A DNA stretch of 15,113 nucleotides, from NCBI GenBank assembly GCA_048886185.1, contig JBHLKY010000043.1:1-15113 (forward strand), in the 5' to 3' direction. The notes beneath the pieces are model-generated. The model did not search any database. It saw only the letters and a list, made by a program, of their open reading frames with translations, and was not told where the DNA came from. Numbering within the stretch: position 1 is the stretch's first letter; each line of letters opens with the position of its first letter. Both the position numbers and the translations under genes were made by a program. Origin of the DNA: Candidatus Hermodarchaeota archaeon. GTDB taxonomy: Archaea > Asgardarchaeota > Heimdallarchaeia > Hodarchaeales > Hodarchaeaceae. This document shows positions 1 through 9,003 of this stretch, piece after piece.

Positions 1-54
1 AAATAATGATTTTTTTATCCAGATTGATAATATTAAAACTGAAGGCGATCCATT

Positions 55-231
55 ATGACAAAAAAGAAAAAAGCTAAACAGATTTATCTTCGGGTTTCAG
101 GTAATCTTTATGATTCAATTGAAAAAGCAATTCAGATAGGAATTGCTGATAATGCCCCAGAGTTTGTACGTCGGTGTATAGTCAATCAGTTAATGGAGTT
201 AAAGCTGTTGGATCTTGAGAAAAAAGATTAA
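55..231 (+). CDS. Ribbon-helix-helix (CopG/Arc/MetJ-like) small DNA-binding protein, 58 aa (not in ORF track)
   Basis: Hand translation from ATG55 to TAA229-231 gives MTKKKKAKQIYLRVSGNLYDSIEKAIQIGIADNAPEFVRRCIVNQLMELKLLDLEKKD. It has an alternating beta strand (QIYLRVS), helix A (LYDSIEKAIQIG) and helix B (APEFVRRCI), matching the archaeal RHH pattern. A purine-rich GAAGGCGA lies just upstream. Confidence 0.75.
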   Translation: MTKKKKAKQIYLRVSGNLYDSIEKAIQIGIADNAPEFVRRCIVNQLMELKLLDLEKKD

Positions 232-1023
232 TTATTCACCTTTTCGTGCAACTCCAAAAAATACTGGCATAAATGAAAACAATTCAGTCGGGGGGTGTGT
301 TTCAAGTATGTGCTTAAGTTTTTTTAGATTATCTTTGTTTTTCTCAGAAAGGAATCGAGTTAATTTATCAATTTCATCTTTATATAAGTCCATCACAACA
401 TTTGGAGAGAGGACAGCTGACTGAAGACCTACTTCTACTTCAAGACCAACTTTAGAAAAGAGTGCACGTAGTTTTCGTCCAATAAGGGGATCAGGAGCAG
501 ATAATGACTCAAAAAGGAGCTCTTCCCAGAGTTTACTAGCAGGATAATCGATACGTCCTCCATAATCAGGCTCAGCTAAGCAAGCTATCCACCCTCCAAT
601 ACGAGTCACTCGCTTCATTTCTTTCAATACTGTGAGGGGTTCTTTTACCCACAATAAAAAATAATGGCTTAAAGTAATATCGAAACTGTTTGGTGAAAAC
701 GGTAATAATTCTCCTTTCGCGCAAACAACATGAGGATTAATTGACTCTCTCTTTGAATAATTTAATGCAATCAAATTCCAATCGACGCCCACTAGCTTTA
801 TTCTTGAGTTAATTGTCTGAATTTCTCTCAGTATTGCACCAGTCCCAGATCCCACTTCAAGAACCTTCTGTGCATGAAACAAATTCATCTTCCGGTATAA
901 CCGCTTTCTAGTTGATATGGTCCATTCCAGTTGATCCTCATAAAGTTCATTGAAATAATGAGTATCTTCTTCCGAATAAATTTGATCTTTCAAGCTTAAT
1001 CGTTGGCCTGACTCTCGGGACAT
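232..1023 (-). CDS. Class I SAM-dependent methyltransferase (Methyltransf_11/25-like)
   Basis: Motif I VLEVGSGTG, acidic VGVD at the end of beta2, and LPFSPNSFDITLSHYFLLWV post-II motif. An SD-like GTGAGGA lies 6 nt upstream of ATG1023. The gene overlaps the 3' end of the radical SAM gene by 28 nt. Substrate unknown. Confidence 0.9.
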   Translation of the reverse strand: MSRESGQRLSLKDQIYSEEDTHYFNELYEDQLEWTISTRKRLYRKMNLFHAQKVLEVGSGTGAILREIQTINSRIKLVGVDWNLIALNYSKRESINPHVVCAKGELLPFSPNSFDITLSHYFLLWVKEPLTVLKEMKRVTRIGGWIACLAEPDYGGRIDYPASKLWEELLFESLSAPDPLIGRKLRALFSKVGLEVEVGLQSAVLSPNVVMDLYKDEIDKLTRFLSEKNKDNLKKLKHILETHPPTELFSFMPVFFGVARKGE

Positions 1024-2321
1024 ATGTATTCCTCACGATAGAAACTCAGAGGGCAACCACCACCACAGAGATTAAGTTGATCACAGTTTCTACATTCATT
1101 AGGAACATTTGCATGAGTTCGCAGTTCTTTTGATAGAGGATTGTTCCAGATGCTTTCCCAACTATCATTCAGAATATTTCCCAATCCTTTATAATAACTC
1201 TGACATGGAATAACGGTCCCATTAGGTTCGATAGCCATTGCTAATTGTGAAGCCGAACATCTTTTCACTCCTAATCCAAGGTTGTTGGGATCAAGTTCAC
1301 AGTAACGAGTTGGCATATACCAAATAAACTGCATACCATATTCATCTGCCACATCCTGAATCGATTCGAGAATGGGTATTAGTTCACTCTCCGTTAAAGC
1401 TATCTTGGACATATTTTCCCCCTTTCCTGCATATATAATTGAGTTACAGGCGAATTGTTCAACATCAAGGCTATTAAGGAACTCTATGGTTTCTTCTATC
1501 TTGGGGGCATTCAATCGAGTCAATGTGGTGTTCGTTAGAGTGTAAGTGGGAGTATCTATGGCATTCTTTACGCCCTCAACCGTTTCTTTCCAAGCTTGGT
1601 CATTTCCCACCATTTGGTTGTGAATCCTTTCATCTACACTTTCGAATGTGATCTGAATATGATCTAAACCGTTATTTACTAGACTGTTTACATAGTTTGC
1701 ATCTTTTAAATTTCGACCATTTGTAATAAGTCCAGTAACTATTCCAATATTCTCTGCATGGTCAATTAAATCGGATAGATCAGAGCGTAACGTGGGTTCA
1801 CCTCCCGTGAAAGTCACGTGAGGGATAGAAATCTCCCAAAGTCGTTCTAGAATAGCCTTCCAAGTCTTTGTATCTAATTCAACTGCATTTTGTGAGTCTG
1901 GTTGATTATAGCAGTGTTCACATTTATTATTACATCGATAAGTAATAGCTAGATCCATCCGTAAAGGAGCTGCTAATTGTAGTTCCGTTAAATTCGATTC
2001 TTCCATCTGTAAGGAATGAATTGGACATATGTCATCTGTTATTGATAATGTATGAATCATCTCTTTCAATGATTGAAGATCTTGATTCGCTTGTTGCTCA
2101 CTAACACGATAAAGGCCTTTAAGCTCCTTTACGATTTCTGAATCTGTCTTACATTTCAAAATCCTTTCCACAAAGAATGTTGCCGTAGAGTTAAGGTTCA
2201 ATATTCTTGATGCGTTGATAATTAAGAGGCCACTATCTTCTTGGCGGCGAAGATGTAACCGAATATCTCCATCCTCCCCTTCTCTCAAATGTACAAGTTT
2301 AGGCTTATTTGAATGTTTCAT
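996..2321 (-). CDS. Radical SAM/SPASM enzyme with N-terminal PqqD-like RiPP recognition element (putative peptide/protein maturase)
   Basis: CxxxCxxC motif CNNKCEHC (1911-1934), GGEP motif TFTGGEPTLR, SPASM motifs CSASQLAMAIEPNGTVIPC and Cx2Cx5Cx3C (CRNCDQLNLCGGGCP). The N-terminal segment LLIINASRILNLNSTATFFVERIL...SEIVKELKGLYRVSEQQANQDL resembles PqqD/RRE winged-helix domains. Confidence 0.93.
   Translation of the reverse strand: MKHSNKPKLVHLREGEDGDIRLHLRRQEDSGLLIINASRILNLNSTATFFVERILKCKTDSEIVKELKGLYRVSEQQANQDLQSLKEMIHTLSITDDICPIHSLQMEESNLTELQLAAPLRMDLAITYRCNNKCEHCYNQPDSQNAVELDTKTWKAILERLWEISIPHVTFTGGEPTLRSDLSDLIDHAENIGIVTGLITNGRNLKDANYVNSLVNNGLDHIQITFESVDERIHNQMVGNDQAWKETVEGVKNAIDTPTYTLTNTTLTRLNAPKIEETIEFLNSLDVEQFACNSIIYAGKGENMSKIALTESELIPILESIQDVADEYGMQFIWYMPTRYCELDPNNLGLGVKRCSASQLAMAIEPNGTVIPCQSYYKGLGNILNDSWESIWNNPLSKELRTHANVPNECRNCDQLNLCGGGCPLSFYREEYICPESQAND
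1030..1036 (-). promoter_or_regulatory. Shine-Dalgarno-like site for the methyltransferase
   Basis: GTGAGGA on the minus strand, 6 nt upstream of ATG1023, inside the radical SAM coding region. Confidence 0.55.
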
Positions 2322-2387
2322 TTAACGTCCACCTCCAGCACAAGCACAGGCACAACCAGCACAGGCACAAGCGCAACCTCCACCTCC
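2322..2387 (-). repeat. Cys-Ala low-complexity tandem motif: two CACACAG heptads flanked by Gly runs
   Basis: Codons at 2322-2387 read GGGG CACACAG CACACAG GGR stop, with six Cys within 12 residues. Synonymous codons vary between copies (TGT/TGC, GCT/GCC), so the repeat is not a perfect DNA microsatellite. Confidence 0.9.
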
Positions 2388-3821
2388 TCTTGAACGCCCA
2401 CCACTTCCTCTAGGAATAGGATGACTAATTCGTGTCACTCTACTTGTGAAAGACCTACCATGAGGAACCCAGTGCCATCTATGGTAACCATAATGGTAGT
2501 ACCAGGGATAATAATCGTAATACTCTTCTCGCTCTGTTATTTGCACTTCTAGATCAGGGAGGAATTCCTCATCCAAAATTGCCCAGAACCAAGCCTCTTT
2601 CGGAACATTTTGAGGATCAAATTCAGATTTAATTGTAGCAACAGAATCTCGAATCAATTTTTCATAATATTCTACGGTTCTTTCATATGAATATCCACGT
2701 ATCCGTTGTTGAGTAGATTTCACCAAACTGGACACAGCTTTTACCATATCACCTTCATCAAGACTGAGATCAACCTGAATGGATTTCAGAACTATTTTCT
2801 CGTATTTACGGAGATACTTTTTCGAAATACCTTTAATAGGTTCAAGAAGAGGTCTTTCTGGAGAAAGCTGTCTTAACAAACCCTTCTGGATTAATGTAAG
2901 TATAATCATGGAGATTGTGACATTAACAGCTTTTTCTAATACAACTGCCACTTCTTCACGACGAAGATCAGTTCTTGGACCTGCTGTAGGTACAGATACA
3001 AAAGGAGGAATATAATCCATTAATCGACGTCGTTTCCTTACATAAGTTATACTAGCAATGACAATAACAATAATTATGCCACCTACAACACCCAAAATAA
3101 TTAGAAATTCCTCTGTGGTGAGAGGAATACTAGTATACCAAGTGACACCTTTTTTAGGAAATGATACTCCATACTGATACTGTTTATTAGGTAATGCTTC
3201 TGATTCGTGCCATTCGAAGACTTTACGTCCATTTGATAAGAAGTACTCGCGATCTGGTTTAAACCGATGATACTTTGTATAAGTTGTCTCATTTACTGTT
3301 ACAGGAAAAATAATTCTTGTTGTTAAATTAGTATTACCTATAGTATACTTTGAACTCCACCATGTATTTCCAAATTCTACACTAGCCATATCTTCATCTT
3401 CAGTGTCTTCAAATATCATGTACGGTTGGTTTCCCTTAACATGGAGTACCCCGCTATCTGTAATTGTGGATTCATATAAATGAATCTCAACACCAATACT
3501 TATTACCTCAGATTTCTTAATATCTGTCACTGGTGTCCCATCTACATCAGCTATCACACTTTCTAGTTTATAATGCTTGTTGGGAAAGCCTATATCCACA
3601 ATATCAATAGGATCACCTCCACTTTCTACAACAAATGTAATCCAGTATTCAATATCGGCAGAACCATCTAAATTGATACATACTTCGACTATTTCTTCGG
3701 GCACAGAGAATTTATAATCATTAACAGTATTAATGTTTCCGCTGATTCCAGTTATTGGTATAATCATTAATAAGAGAATGAAACAGATAACATAACAAGA
3801 AAAGTATTTCAATAACTTCAT
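2322..3821 (-). CDS. Signal peptide + extracellular beta domain + single TM + cytoplasmic region (DUF2207-like architecture) with C-terminal (CA)3G(CA)3GGGR tail; putative radical SAM substrate
   Basis: N-terminal hydrophobic signal, TM FLIILGVVGGIIIVIVIASITYV followed by RKRRR (positive-inside), then a Tyr/His/Trp-rich segment, a Gly/Arg linker and GGGGCACACAGCACACAGGGR-stop. The stop codon directly abuts the radical SAM ATG (TAAATG). The DUF2207 similarity is judged by eye only. Confidence 0.8.
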   Translation of the reverse strand: MKLLKYFSCYVICFILLLMIIPITGISGNINTVNDYKFSVPEEIVEVCINLDGSADIEYWITFVVESGGDPIDIVDIGFPNKHYKLESVIADVDGTPVTDIKKSEVISIGVEIHLYESTITDSGVLHVKGNQPYMIFEDTEDEDMASVEFGNTWWSSKYTIGNTNLTTRIIFPVTVNETTYTKYHRFKPDREYFLSNGRKVFEWHESEALPNKQYQYGVSFPKKGVTWYTSIPLTTEEFLIILGVVGGIIIVIVIASITYVRKRRRLMDYIPPFVSVPTAGPRTDLRREEVAVVLEKAVNVTISMIILTLIQKGLLRQLSPERPLLEPIKGISKKYLRKYEKIVLKSIQVDLSLDEGDMVKAVSSLVKSTQQRIRGYSYERTVEYYEKLIRDSVATIKSEFDPQNVPKEAWFWAILDEEFLPDLEVQITEREEYYDYYPWYYHYGYHRWHWVPHGRSFTSRVTRISHPIPRGSGGRSRGGGGCACACAGCACACAGGGR

Positions 3822-3828
3822 GATGATA

Positions 3829-3833
3829 ACCTC
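3829..3833 (-). promoter_or_regulatory. Shine-Dalgarno-like site for the Cys-tail membrane protein
   Basis: GAGGT on the minus strand, 7 nt upstream of ATG3821. Confidence 0.55.
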
Positions 3834-3930
3834 GGTAATTGTTTAGCTTTGTCACAGTTTTACTGAGGTTAAGAATGTTTTCTTCACATACTTTTCTTAA
3901 AAACTCAAAAAATTCTCAGGTATGAAAGGA

Positions 3931-4809
3931 TCATATATCAACATTCAGTACTGATCGAACGACTAATCCAATAATGAAAGTCAATGCTGCTACTCCTAAA
4001 CTAATTCCGACAATTTCAGAAAATCTTTTCTTAAATGAAAGATCCTTAGCAACCGAAATATAAAACGTAAAGAGAAAAATCACAATAATCGCATTGATAA
4101 TAGTGATTATCAAGCAAAAAATGGGAGATTGATTACTAAATACTAAAAAAGGGAAAATCAGAAAAAATACAGTAAGAACATATGCAGTTCCTGTATAAAT
4201 TGCAGCTTTTAAAGGATTTTTTGTCGATTTTTCCTCAGATTTTGTTGCTAGATATTCTGAAGCTGCCATGGATAATGAGGCTGCAATTCCTGTAATTAGT
4301 CCAGCCAGTGCAATTAGTTGAGAGTTTTGAAATGCTAATGTTAATCCAGCTAACGCTCCTGTTAGCTCGACAAGCGCATCATTTAACCCAAGTACAACAG
4401 ATCCGATATAATCAAGTAATTCTTCGTCTATCAGCCCTATAAGCTGTTTTTCATGAGCTTCTTCGTCGTCGATGATAGATTTAGCTTCAGGAATTACTTT
4501 CATGATTTTTGTATAGAAAGGTTGAGCTTGTCCTTCTCCGAGCTCCATTAGACGAATACCAAATGTCAATCCAAAGATCTTGGAAATAAAATAATAGACC
4601 CACTTTTTTATCCTACTGAGTTTCACATCACTATGTGTATATTGCTTCCAGAAATTATAGTGACTCAATTCATCCTCAGCGATCTTACTGAGTATTTTTT
4701 TATTGTGAGAATCTTTGATAGACTTCGAGAGCTTTTTATAAATGAAATATTCTGTAATTTCATTTTTCTGAGCTGTTAGTATGAGTTTTTTTGTTTGTTC
4801 ATCAAACAT
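3931..4809 (-). CDS. Ferritin/rubrerythrin-like domain + VIT1/CCC1 membrane domain (MbfA-like iron/manganese transporter)
   Basis: N-terminal four-helix di-iron motifs (KNEITEYFIY, AEDELSHY, EEAHEKQL). The C-terminal VIT1 signature is VVLGLNDALVELTGALAGLT...GLITGIAASLSMAASEYLATKSE, followed by multiple TM helices. Confidence 0.9.
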   Translation of the reverse strand: MFDEQTKKLILTAQKNEITEYFIYKKLSKSIKDSHNKKILSKIAEDELSHYNFWKQYTHSDVKLSRIKKWVYYFISKIFGLTFGIRLMELGEGQAQPFYTKIMKVIPEAKSIIDDEEAHEKQLIGLIDEELLDYIGSVVLGLNDALVELTGALAGLTLAFQNSQLIALAGLITGIAASLSMAASEYLATKSEEKSTKNPLKAAIYTGTAYVLTVFFLIFPFLVFSNQSPIFCLIITIINAIIVIFLFTFYISVAKDLSFKKRFSEIVGISLGVAALTFIIGLVVRSVLNVDI

Positions 4810-6187: not shown

Positions 6188-6922
6188 ATGATTTTTAGGA
6201 ACCACAATAAATTACTACTTCTTAGCTTAATTCTTTATTCAAGCCTTGTACTAGCTGTTTCCCAATTAAACATTAGTTCGTGTAAAGCAATTGAAGTGAC
6301 TCCTACCACAAGGGTTGGATGGCATGATGTTGTGGTTGTAAACTACACGTTATGGATATTAGAGGATGAAGAACCACCTTTAGTAGGAACAATTTACGTA
6401 GAGAATCCAGATATAATAGAACAAGAGGGTGTCCCTGAAAGTATTATTGAAGAATTTCCTGATGTGTATGCGCCACCAAATCTTGGTTTTGTGGAGGGAA
6501 TTTTAGGAATGAAAGCTGGAGAAGAAAAAAATTGGGAGGTTCCTTTCTCAAGTGGAAAAGCTTTCAATAATGCCACAAAAGATCCCGACTATTATGGTAA
6601 GGACCTCTTCTATCAAATCAGGTTAAAGGAAATCTTACTTGATGCAAGTATACCCCCCTCAACGTTACTAGATCTCCCTTTTTTTCTACCTCTAGTTGGT
6701 CTTATAGGTTTACTTATCTCCCTTTTGATAATCTTACGAATTCAGCGATATAGTCGTACACATAATCTTTTTGGGTTAAAGAAAAAGTGTTACAGCTGTA
6801 GAAAATTAGCAGAGGTACGGTGTGGAAACTCTGCGTGTAGCACTCATTATTGTAAAAAATGTTTTCTAAACAATAATATGTGTGATGTGTGTCACTCAAA
6901 TACTATGGTTCCTATAAAATGA
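6188..6922 (+). CDS. Membrane-anchored FKBP-fold (peptidyl-prolyl isomerase-like) protein with C-terminal 8-Cys zinc finger
   Basis: N-terminal signal/TM; FKBP-like motifs VVVVNYTL, GFVEGILGMKAGEEK and YYGKDLFYQIRLKEI; TM LPFFLPLVGLIGLLISLLIIL; then Cx2Cx7Cx4Cx4Cx2Cx6Cx2C (6788-6892). Confidence 0.75.
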   Translation: MIFRNHNKLLLLSLILYSSLVLAVSQLNISSCKAIEVTPTTRVGWHDVVVVNYTLWILEDEEPPLVGTIYVENPDIIEQEGVPESIIEEFPDVYAPPNLGFVEGILGMKAGEEKNWEVPFSSGKAFNNATKDPDYYGKDLFYQIRLKEILLDASIPPSTLLDLPFFLPLVGLIGLLISLLIILRIQRYSRTHNLFGLKKKCYSCRKLAEVRCGNSACSTHYCKKCFLNNNMCDVCHSNTMVPIK

Positions 6923-7623: not shown

Positions 7624-9003
7624 CTATTCTACCGTAGGAGGCCGGCCACGAAAGAATTGGAATTTATGATAGTCGTATGGTTCAATTGTTTTTAATAGAT
7701 ATTGAAATAAATCTTCCGCTTTTTTTTCGGCCTCACATACAAAAATATCAAGCGAAAGGTAATCCCATTCAGGCCAAGTATGCAAATGGCAATGACTTTC
7801 AACTAAAATAGCAATAATTGACAAGCCATATGGAGAAAACTCTTTAACGAATATTTCCTCCACGTGAAGTTGACTCTCTGTAATACCATTCCTTATGATA
7901 TTCGTTAGTAACTCAGCATTATTTAGAAATGTGGATTTGACTCCATAAAACTCAGCGATAATCTGATATCCTACTGTTGGGAGATCTTTTACTTTCTTCT
8001 GATTAAAAGTATAGATTGCTGTTTCAGAATGTTTAGTTTCAAGAATACGTAACTTTTGAGGGACAGAGCTTAAAACATACAAATTTGAAGTGTTACCCAA
8101 GATTGTTGCTCCATGGTAACGATTAAAATTCTGAAAAAACTCATCAATTGAAAAACCTGCTTCCAATAAGTGTTGTTGACATACCCAAGTTTCATGAGGA
8201 GATTTTGCTCCAAACGAAACATAACCTCTCCCACCATTTATTGGATTTAGAAGGGTAAGAGCTTGATTAATAAAGAGTTTAAACCCTGGTACTGTATAAG
8301 GTGGATCAGTTTCAAAAGTATCAAACCGATGAAACCATTCTGATGGAAATGATGTACGAATATCCCATAATTGAGTCTTTAAAACAGTTTCCAAGTTTTT
8401 CTCATAAGCGAAAGAATTGATAAATTCTAGGACACGGGGATCTATATCAATAACAAGTATTTCTCTTGCACATTGAAGAAATCCTAATGTTAAGGAAACA
8501 CCGTCATCATCTCCCAATATGGCAATTCTTTTCCCCTCCACATCACCATTTCTAAGCATTAATAGTGCTCTTTTTAACACTGTTTCTGAAAGACTCCGTG
8601 ACTGATCATAATTATAATCAGGAGGAGGCCGTTTATTAAGGTATTCTATTACTGGATTAAAAAACTCTAAATACTGTTTTGAGACCTTTAATGACGAGTT
8701 TTCACAAAATTTTTCAAGAAAATCAAAAGAATAAGATAATCCTAATCTATCATGAATCCAATCATTGGCTGCAGTTGAAAAACTGCTTTTTGTTTTTAGA
8801 AATCCTTTCTTTAACATCTCCCCCCTAACAGCAGAAAGAACAGGAACAGGGATTTGCACATACCTTGAGAGATCTTTATTGGTTACTTTTTGATTTTTAC
8901 GTCTGTACATCTCACGAATAATTCTTTCAACTCCCCTCGGACCTTCTTGCAAGTGGCTTTTCTCTGCAATTGATCTAAAGAAGGTTTGAGGATCTCCAAA
9001 CAT
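7624..9003 (-). CDS. bpsA-speD: Fusion: branched-chain polyamine synthase BpsA (N4-bis(aminopropyl)spermidine synthase family) + C-terminal pyruvoyl-dependent S-adenosylmethionine decarboxylase (SpeD class 1b)
   Basis: BpsA motifs RPPPDYNYDQS, GDVEGKRIAILGDDDGVSL, VIDIDPRVLEFI, RFDTFETDPPYT and FNRY. The SpeD domain (about 7974-7627) shows GYQIIAEFYG, FSPYGLSIIAILVE/SHCHLHTWPE and DIFVC...RG. It is one continuous ORF with no stop between the domains. Confidence 0.9.
   Translation of the reverse strand: MFGDPQTFFRSIAEKSHLQEGPRGVERIIREMYRRKNQKVTNKDLSRYVQIPVPVLSAVRGEMLKKGFLKTKSSFSTAANDWIHDRLGLSYSFDFLEKFCENSSLKVSKQYLEFFNPVIEYLNKRPPPDYNYDQSRSLSETVLKRALLMLRNGDVEGKRIAILGDDDGVSLTLGFLQCAREILVIDIDPRVLEFINSFAYEKNLETVLKTQLWDIRTSFPSEWFHRFDTFETDPPYTVPGFKLFINQALTLLNPINGGRGYVSFGAKSPHETWVCQQHLLEAGFSIDEFFQNFNRYHGATILGNTSNLYVLSSVPQKLRILETKHSETAIYTFNQKKVKDLPTVGYQIIAEFYGVKSTFLNNAELLTNIIRNGITESQLHVEEIFVKEFSPYGLSIIAILVESHCHLHTWPEWDYLSLDIFVCEAEKKAEDLFQYLLKTIEPYDYHKFQFFRGRPPTVE

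Follow-up and report, generated by a model that had tools for sequence, protein, structure and literature searches.

Can a maturase-type enzyme act on the cytoplasmic end of a full-length membrane protein in an Asgard archaeon? This question is raised by a three-gene cassette in the first 15,113 nucleotides of contig JBHLKY010000043.1 (assembly GCA_048886185.1) from a Candidatus Hermodarchaeota archaeon of the family Hodarchaeaceae. We refer to this stretch as the window; the contig begins with it, and the Asgard assembly to which it belongs spans 4.84 Mb and is 96% complete. The cassette encodes a membrane protein with a Cys-Ala tail (P0001), a radical S-adenosylmethionine (SAM) enzyme (P0002), and a methyltransferase (P0003). 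Since the same pairing of tail and enzyme recurs in many anaerobic bacteria and archaea, it probably represents an undescribed modification of a whole-protein tail. We favor the explanation that the cassette chemically alters the tail in the cytoplasm as part of the full-length protein, and taken as a whole we give it slightly better than an even chance.

2322-3821, minus strand: P0001, tail protein, 499 amino acids (open reading frame [ORF] and translation)
996-2321, minus strand: P0002, enzyme with a recognition element (RRE) for ribosomally synthesized and posttranslationally modified peptides (RiPPs), a radical SAM domain, and a SPASM domain, 441 amino acids (ORF and Pfam)
232-1023, minus strand: P0003, class I SAM methyltransferase, 263 amino acids (ORF and Pfam)

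The original prediction described three co-oriented genes with essentially no spacers, the first ending in a six-Cys patterned tail, the second carrying PqqD-like, radical SAM, and SPASM domains, and the third encoding a SAM methyltransferase, and all of these elements are confirmed. At the TAAATG junction (2324-2319), the ATG of P0002 abuts the TAA stop codon of P0001 (2324-2322) with zero spacer. The P0002 and P0003 genes share 28 nucleotides (996-1023), and the predicted internal Shine-Dalgarno sequence is present as GAGGA, 7 nucleotides 5' of the P0003 ATG. P0001 ends in CACACAGCACACAGGGR followed by the stop codon, all three P0002 domains exceed their Pfam gathering cut-offs, and P0003 matches Methyltransf_11 (PF08241) at 61.0 bits versus a cut-off of 21.2, which places it among the class I enzymes. 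Top matches to the cassette come from Hodarchaeales/Heimdall-type genomes, and the source genome itself holds exactly one tail and one cognate enzyme.

The tail and a conserved segment ahead of it are the part of P0001 on which the question turns.

2325-2375, minus strand: tail CACACAGCACACAGGGR, final 17 residues, then TAA (translation)
2412-2453, minus strand: leader-like motif SFTSRVTRISHPIP, residues 457-470 (34-sequence alignment)

The C terminus of P0001 reads ...GGGGCACACAGCACACAGGGR and then stops, the core of the tail following the formula (Cys-Ala)3-Gly-(Cys-Ala)3-Gly3-Arg. In a word-based homologue search, almost every one of the 120 top-ranked homologues, bacteria included, showed the identical 17-residue ending. 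Such a search favors shared words, and for this reason an index-free HMMER search was added, whose 150 best representatives comprise 65 with the exact tail, 55 with variants, and 30 with no tail, many of the last resembling fragments. The variants are (CA)5GGGR, (CA)2G(CA)4GGGR, or forms with S for the central G, and nearly all end in CACACAGGGR. A scan of species-representative genomes with a back-translated DNA pattern recovered the exact tail at no fewer than 120 loci (at least 120). Among the matches listed, a stop codon follows immediately in 122 of 122 copies, and these are 122 different DNA sequences in which every synonymous codon is used, so that selection acts on the peptide as well as on its placement at the very end of the protein. 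A pure DNA-level origin, such as a microsatellite or palindrome, was ruled out, as the 122 listed copies differ synonymously while encoding an identical peptide. The tail pattern was found in 59 of 400 Asgard genomes, and a reversed control pattern in 0 of 400; judged by sequence, the Cys-Ala tail is more than a chance repeat.

Hosts of the exact tail among the matches listed are mostly Anaerolineae, joined by Acidobacteriota, Aminicenantes, Planctomycetota, Zixibacteria, Fermentibacterota, Coatesbacteria, Clostridia, Syntrophothermus, and Asgard archaea; Ornatilinea apprima P3M-1 is a cultured carrier. The leader-like motif lies approximately 12 residues ahead of the Cys-Ala repeat in P0001. 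Across the last 75 residues of the 34 aligned sequences, which span Asgard archaea and bacteria, the F of SFT and the two prolines of H/N-P-x-P are invariant.

We observe a close linkage between this tail and the enzyme. At 91 of 99 exact-tail loci with room among the matches listed (a locus counts as having room if it leaves at least 1.5 kb for the enzyme), the next gene downstream on the same strand encodes an orthologue of P0002 (40 to 52% identity), and at two further listed loci tandem tail genes precede the enzyme. In three bacterial loci that were picked for their long contigs, with the neighborhood not known beforehand, a Radical_SAM/SPASM gene of 445 to 456 codons directly follows the tail gene in all three. 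Among 400 Asgard genomes, the tail is present in 59 and an enzyme orthologue (E value of 1e-80 or better) in 73, distributed as follows.

58 genomes: tail and enzyme
1 genome: tail only (contig edge)
15 genomes: enzyme only

The original prediction would lose its footing if tail-bearing homologues usually occurred without the radical SAM neighbor, and these counts, for the listed loci as for the 59 Asgard carriers, point the other way. Within the genus of the window, the tail, enzyme, and methyltransferase are all found in the same 10 of 21 other genomes, contiguous wherever contigs permit. The remaining 11 congeners, five of them at least 90% complete, have none of the three. This all-or-none pattern indicates that the cassette is accessory and that its genes come and go together.

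A separate substrate peptide is not apparent. No short precursor ORF had been noticed near the enzyme in the original prediction, and we likewise find no further Cys-rich short ORF in positions 1 to 4000 of the window. A 58-residue ORF at the extreme contig start (55-231, plus strand), convergent with the P0003 gene, contains one Cys and is therefore no precursor candidate. Since the cassette sits at the contig edge, genes past P0003 are not visible here; at the corresponding loci of two relatives (L009 and L016), nothing cassette-like was seen beyond the methyltransferase. Nor do we find a small precursor conserved elsewhere: only 178 short proteins bear the tail module, versus thousands of full-length ones, and most of them lie on contigs of less than 2 kb. 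Those inspected continue upstream into the same family, and the short proteins are thus pieces of the full-length family instead of a leader-plus-core family. In the strict sense, a RiPP derives from a short, separately encoded precursor with leader and core and is released as a peptide. The cassette falls outside this definition, with no short precursor and no protease or exporter conserved in it.

A second enzyme clade, 31 to 34% identical to P0002, is found in other Asgard genomes together with its own tail protein, for example at locus L148.

L148:5947-8115, plus strand: 722-residue P0001 homologue of the sister system
L148:3804-5237, minus strand: paralogous enzyme of the sister system

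The 722-residue protein shares 24% identity with P0001 over the transmembrane helix and cytoplasmic domain (E value, 4e-10), and its tail repeat, (ACHS)n...ACVSGGFR, is unlike Cys-Ala. The sister system is also present in genomes G312, G336, G375, and G385, and in five of five genomes tested its tail gene lies 2.7 to 8.6 kb from the paralogous enzyme. The ACHS repeat occurs at one locus per genome, on the contig of the enzyme, in all five; among carriers of the Cys-Ala type, 0 of 5 showed it. In this small sample, tail type thus follows enzyme clade, as expected of an enzyme and its substrate.

The predicted structure of P0001 (AlphaFold; mean predicted local distance difference test score [pLDDT], 79) would place the tail within reach of such an enzyme.

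Residues 2-24, minus strand: N-terminal hydrophobic helix (AlphaFold model)
3156-3710, minus strand: extracytoplasmic beta-sandwich, residues 38-222 (AlphaFold model, pLDDT above 90)
3027-3116, minus strand: transmembrane helix, residues 236-265, followed by RKRRR (model helix; hydropathy peak, 3.17)
Residues 288-444, minus strand: helical domain (AlphaFold model)
Residues 456-466, minus strand: short helix over SFTSRVTRIS (AlphaFold model)
Residues 471-499, minus strand: disordered tail (AlphaFold model)

By hydropathy, a single central transmembrane helix is common to nearly all relatives. The basic cluster that follows it suggests, by the positive-inside rule, that the C-terminal half and the tail of P0001 lie in the cytoplasm, where the enzyme could reach the tail.

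P0001 has no Pfam or NCBIfam match, even at an E value of 1, although more than 2,500 homologues came up in the word-based search. Its model aligns with a DUF2207/DUF2207_C cluster at a template modeling (TM) score of 0.53 over 364 residues, and UniRef labels one homologue DUF2207. P0001 does not match PF09972 or PF20990, and among 34 relatives DUF2207 is detected in 1 (E value, 0.05) and DUF2207_C in 2 (E value, 0.094). We consider P0001 a distant relative of DUF2207 by modeled fold and not a member by family model. DUF2207 proteins and P0001 alike have a signal or anchor helix, a beta-sandwich ectodomain, a transmembrane helix, a cytoplasmic helical domain, and a Gly-rich C terminus, whereas the DUF2207 description includes neither a Cys-Ala tail nor a radical SAM partner, both of which P0001 has. 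Among solved structures, a Foldseek search with the whole model ranks ribophorin I of the human oligosaccharyltransferase (OST) first and the M1 aminopeptidase N-domain next, the likeness in both cases falling on the ectodomain (residues 38 to 222). An archaeal Ribophorin_I cluster was also returned by the predicted-structure search, and a link between the DUF2207-like and ribophorin I folds in an Asgard archaeon may merit attention in its own right.

The enzyme combines three domains that are found together in peptide maturases. In radical SAM enzymes, a partial TIM barrel houses the [4Fe-4S] cluster that cleaves SAM, bound by a CxxxCxxC motif; SPASM is a C-terminal seven-Cys motif, including CxxCx5Cx3C, for two auxiliary [4Fe-4S] clusters; and the RRE is a PqqD-like winged helix that binds the substrate leader.

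2040-2297, minus strand: N-terminal RRE (PqqD-like winged helix), residues ~9-94 (PqqD Pfam match and model)
1911-1934, minus strand: CxxxCxxC radical SAM cluster motif, C130, C134, and C137 (invariant in 34 orthologues)
1050-1301, minus strand: SPASM, seven invariant Cys, C341, C355, C373, C410, C413, C419, and C423 (Pfam and alignment)

Pfam scores are 30.1 bits for PqqD (cut-off, 23.4; residues 35 to 85), 83.3 bits for Radical_SAM (PF04055; cut-off, 29.5), and 45.5 bits for SPASM (PF13186; cut-off, 21.5), which places P0002 in the radical SAM superfamily and the SPASM subfamily; the SPASM spacing is C410-x2-C413-x5-C419-x3-C423. The model of P0002 (predicted TM score, 0.85) has an N-terminal beta-sheet with three helices, a barrel, and the SPASM region. 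In full-length structural comparison it comes closest to SkfB, SuiB, and CteB, RiPP maturases that all bear an RRE, and next to PqqE and anSME; by sequence in the PDB, PqqE, SkfB, and SuiB are about equally distant.

None of P0001, P0002, and P0003 attains the curated cut-off of any NCBIfam model. The highest curated hidden Markov model (HMM) for P0002 is PqqE (TIGR02109; 144.7 bits versus a cut-off of 381.35), and MftC (TIGR03962; 89.5 versus 265), SkfB (TIGR04403; 88.4 versus 300), StsB (NF045574; 81 versus 625), AlbA (NF012164; 74.8 versus 850), and the CrpC family (TIGR04463, rSAM_vs_C_rich; 27 versus 525) also fall below theirs, so that P0002 is a member of none. By these profile scores, P0002 represents a clade outside the assigned maturase families. 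The enzyme tree, with supports of 83 to 94, sets a Chloroflexota clade apart from the remainder and favors neither a single Asgard clade nor several, nor any direction of transfer. A complex prediction of P0002 with the last 75 residues of P0001, based on 34-row alignments, gave a score of 0.15 (mark, 0.32) and bears neither way on binding.

The third gene and its companions vary among lineages. A P0003 homologue lies downstream on the same strand at 37 of 50 loci with room among the matches listed; P0003 itself reaches the cut-off of no specific NCBIfam family, the best being BioC (52.4 versus 184.95). The cassette of the window consists of the three core genes only. In Ornatilinea (locus L063), the order is small transmembrane and zinc-ribbon protein, tail protein, enzyme, enzyme paralogue, and methyltransferase.

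L063:6437-6811, minus strand: Anaerolineae small membrane protein with C-terminal zinc ribbon, before the tail gene
L063:2118-3278, minus strand: Anaerolineae enzyme paralogue with an RRE-like N terminus, only two Cys, and no CxxxCxxC

In bacteria, as in some Asgard genomes, the small zinc-ribbon protein is encoded ahead of the tail gene. A single query did not find it in the source genome, a blank that does not show absence, and a search of that genome for the Cys-poor enzyme paralogue matched only P0002 itself.

Several neighbors of the cassette are worth recording. Directly upstream (3931-4809, minus strand), a rubrerythrin-like domain is fused to a VIT1/CCC1-type iron transporter, a neighbor retained within the genus (loci L009 and L016) and not in other lineages. 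A 244-residue protein (6188-6922, plus strand), without a Pfam match and kept in synteny in the genus, has a signal or anchor helix, an ectodomain, a transmembrane helix, and a cytoplasmic Cys-rich, zinc-finger-like end, and shows no sequence kinship to the small zinc-ribbon proteins of the cassette. Further along, a single ORF (7624-9003, minus strand) joins a branched-chain polyamine synthase domain (BpsA_C) to an S-adenosylmethionine decarboxylase domain and adjoins lipid-related genes, namely, a UbiA prenyltransferase, inositol-1-phosphate synthase, and a cytidylyltransferase family gene. The nine sequencing runs listed comprise sediment, estuary, soil, and mangrove metagenomes and one of unrecorded source; eight are DNA and one is of unrecorded kind, with no RNA data among them.

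Adjacency, co-occurrence, the missing precursor, and the predicted cytoplasmic topology together support the membrane-protein tail as the likely substrate, as originally proposed. Gene order, domain content, the constancy and terminal placement of the tail, co-occurrence, the missing precursor, and the co-variation of tail type with enzyme clade are observations; the substrate, the role of the RRE, the chemistry, and the topology in the following scheme we infer. P0001 would be inserted in the membrane with its beta-sandwich outside and its helical domain and disordered tail in the cytoplasm. Co-translated P0002 would recognize the C-terminal module, probably via the RRE and the F-T-x-x-V-T-x-x-S-H/N-P-x-P segment, and 5'-deoxyadenosyl radical chemistry would modify the (Cys-Ala)3-Gly-(Cys-Ala)3-Gly3-Arg core within the full-length protein. 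That P0002 alters the tail by some chemistry strikes us as somewhat more likely than not. The likeliest chemistry would be an intramolecular thioether of the sactionine or ranthionine type, from Cys sulfur to neighboring Ala or Gly carbons; this assignment draws on analogy with StsB, CteB, and CrpC only, and in itself it is doubtful. A hairpin about the central Gly could set each Cys opposite an Ala, comparable to the CxCxC...GxGxG of StsA, and P0003 would then add one or more methyl groups. A cassette that builds a ladder of radical-SAM Cys cross-links, plus methylation, on the cytoplasmic C terminus of a membrane protein is a possibility to which we grant somewhat less than an even chance. 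If true, the tail would become a rigid prosthetic structure built into the protein, perhaps redox-active or able to bind metal. The system would be conserved in lineages ranging from Asgard archaea to Chloroflexota, with sister systems on other Cys-repeat tails, and the whole would form a family of in-cis RiPP-like chemistry on membrane proteins.

A number of observations weigh against the explanation we favor, modification of the tail by P0002. The methyltransferase is absent from about one-quarter of loci among the matches listed, and in one Asgard family the enzyme and methyltransferase (L143 to L146) are unlinked to the tail gene. In that family, 12 of 19 enzyme-bearing genomes are without the exact tail pattern; its tail gene (L150:1420-4027) stands behind a 127-residue transmembrane and zinc-ribbon protein and ends in CACACACVSCACACAGGGR. 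The strict leader-like motif is present in 51 of 117 diverse tail-bearing representatives, and is therefore a trait of a major clade that includes P0001, not a universal one; with PqqD detected in 28 of 34 P0002 orthologues, an incomplete coverage, recognition of a leader by the RRE may not be universal either. The hairpin idea is weakened by variants in which the central Gly is shifted or absent. Moreover, as P0002 lies far below every curated maturase cut-off, its reaction is unreadable from homology. A last adverse point, that Cys-X-Cys repeats are classic metal or cluster ligands, leads to a different account of the tail.

Metallothionein-like and cluster-binding sites typically show Cys-X-Cys spacing, and the tail might be a metal or Fe-S site presenting six thiolates on one hairpin face with no covalent change. 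P0002 would then receive or donate a cluster, dock on the membrane protein, or use another substrate. The disorder of the tail in the model is what an apo metal site would show, a rubrerythrin-VIT1 iron transporter-like gene lies directly upstream in the window and genus, and a small membrane protein with a zinc ribbon belongs to the bacterial cassette. We nonetheless consider a bare metal site unlikely: it would have no need for an RRE-bearing maturase-type neighbor kept across phyla, nor for invariant Ala, Gly, and C-terminal Arg or a strictly terminal repeat, and the iron-related neighbor is not conserved beyond the genus. The strict C-terminal position and invariant last residues also recall MftA- and PqqA-type substrates, which suggests a tail that serves as a scaffold for a small molecule or cofactor later cut off, as for pyrroloquinoline quinone, mycofactocin, and pearlins, with the membrane protein a mere carrier. 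PqqE as the best curated HMM and MftC on the list (all below cut-off), as well as the presence of a tailoring methyltransferase, fit this idea. Set against it are the lack of a protease or peptidase gene conserved in the cassette, the cost of spending a membrane protein of 500 to 600 residues with a conserved ectodomain on a single use, and the conservation of the host protein over its entire length, and we regard a cleaved scaffold as quite improbable. Finally, tail protein and enzyme might share a pathway or regulation with no enzyme-substrate relation, the enzyme modifying a lipid, a cofactor, or another protein. SPASM enzymes do take non-peptide substrates, enzymes of heme and heme d1 as well as Tes are among the HMM matches, and the genes are unlinked in the one Asgard family. 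The N-terminal RRE and the full-length structural matches indicate peptide maturases, however, tail type co-varies with enzyme clade, and presence and absence match perfectly within the genus, all of which makes a merely shared pathway very improbable.

Modification of the full-length protein, the explanation we favor, would be of interest for several reasons. A 17-residue tail is identical across two domains of life and tied to a maturase-type enzyme in many anaerobic lineages, and its carriers include archaeal relatives of eukaryotes. To our knowledge, nearly all radical SAM/SPASM maturases described act on small secreted peptides, and we know of few validated whole-protein cases (QhpD and CrpC), none of them a membrane protein. 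No function is known for the host family, which resembles DUF2207 and has an ectodomain like that of ribophorin I, so that learning the fate of the tail would offer a first handle on it. In addition, the system is open to direct testing: trypsin would yield the tail as a ready peptide, the enzyme lends itself to co-expression with the proposed substrate, and O. apprima P3M-1 is a carrier in culture.

How does the arrangement compare with known systems? In the searched literature, neither the string CACACAGGGR nor DUF2207 together with radical SAM gave a match, an ACGX-repeat did not occur, and CACACAG with radical SAM returned viperin primer sequences only. Among enzymes of similar build, PqqE and MftC are cofactor-forming RRE/SPASM enzymes, PqqE being also the best PDB sequence match to P0002; the window ORFs include neither peptides resembling PqqA or MftA nor further genes of the pqq or mft sets. 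SkfB, CteB (SCIFF), AlbA, and SuiB share the architecture of P0002 (RRE, radical SAM, and auxiliary-cluster domain), yet their substrates are short secreted peptides whereas P0001 is a membrane protein, and, in contrast to their systems, the cassette has no transporter or protease.

The closest likeness in the core itself is with StsA/StsB/StsC of Streptomyces sparsogenes and BlaA/BlaB, in which a radical SAM/SPASM enzyme acts with RRE help on an alternating-Cys core (PMC10288494). StsB installs three nested Cys-to-Gly sactionines on a CxCxC...GxGxG core, giving a hairpin ladder product (PMC10288494). The tail in the window shares the Cys-x-Cys rhythm and Gly/Ala acceptors of StsA. However, StsA is made as a small, free precursor that carries its leader at the N terminus, and the RRE of that system is a protein of its own; the P0001 core is the C terminus of a 499-residue membrane protein, and the RRE is fused to P0002. 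Nor is P0002 a member of the StsB family, given its 81 bits against a cut-off of 625.

Two precedents bear on the whole-protein aspect. QhpD pre-forms intraprotein Cys thioethers in QhpC, which still works as a protein (PMC7876137). QhpC, of quinohemoprotein amine dehydrogenase, is a small soluble subunit with Cys-to-Asp/Glu links and a quinone cofactor, and unlike P0001 it has no repeat tail and is no membrane protein. In the archaeon Methanococcus voltae, the SPASM radical SAM enzyme CrpC, which includes an RRE, forms ranthionines on the full-size Cys-rich protein CrpA encoded adjacent to it (PMC13692751, 2026). CrpA is soluble, carries ten CxxQ/D repeats of 17 residues each, and has a leader-like stretch at its N terminus, whereas P0001 is a membrane protein with a C-terminal tail; the CrpA/CrpC paper contains no "membrane," "Asgard," or "CAC" string (PMC13692751). 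The original prediction had presented the arrangement as uncharacterized, which stands, as we find none in the searched literature, Pfam, or NCBIfam. Its broader idea is less unprecedented than first implied, because whole-protein thioethers are precedented by QhpD (PMC7876137) and CrpC/CrpA (PMC13692751). The arrangement itself appears to be new, while its principle, radical SAM chemistry on a whole protein, is already known.

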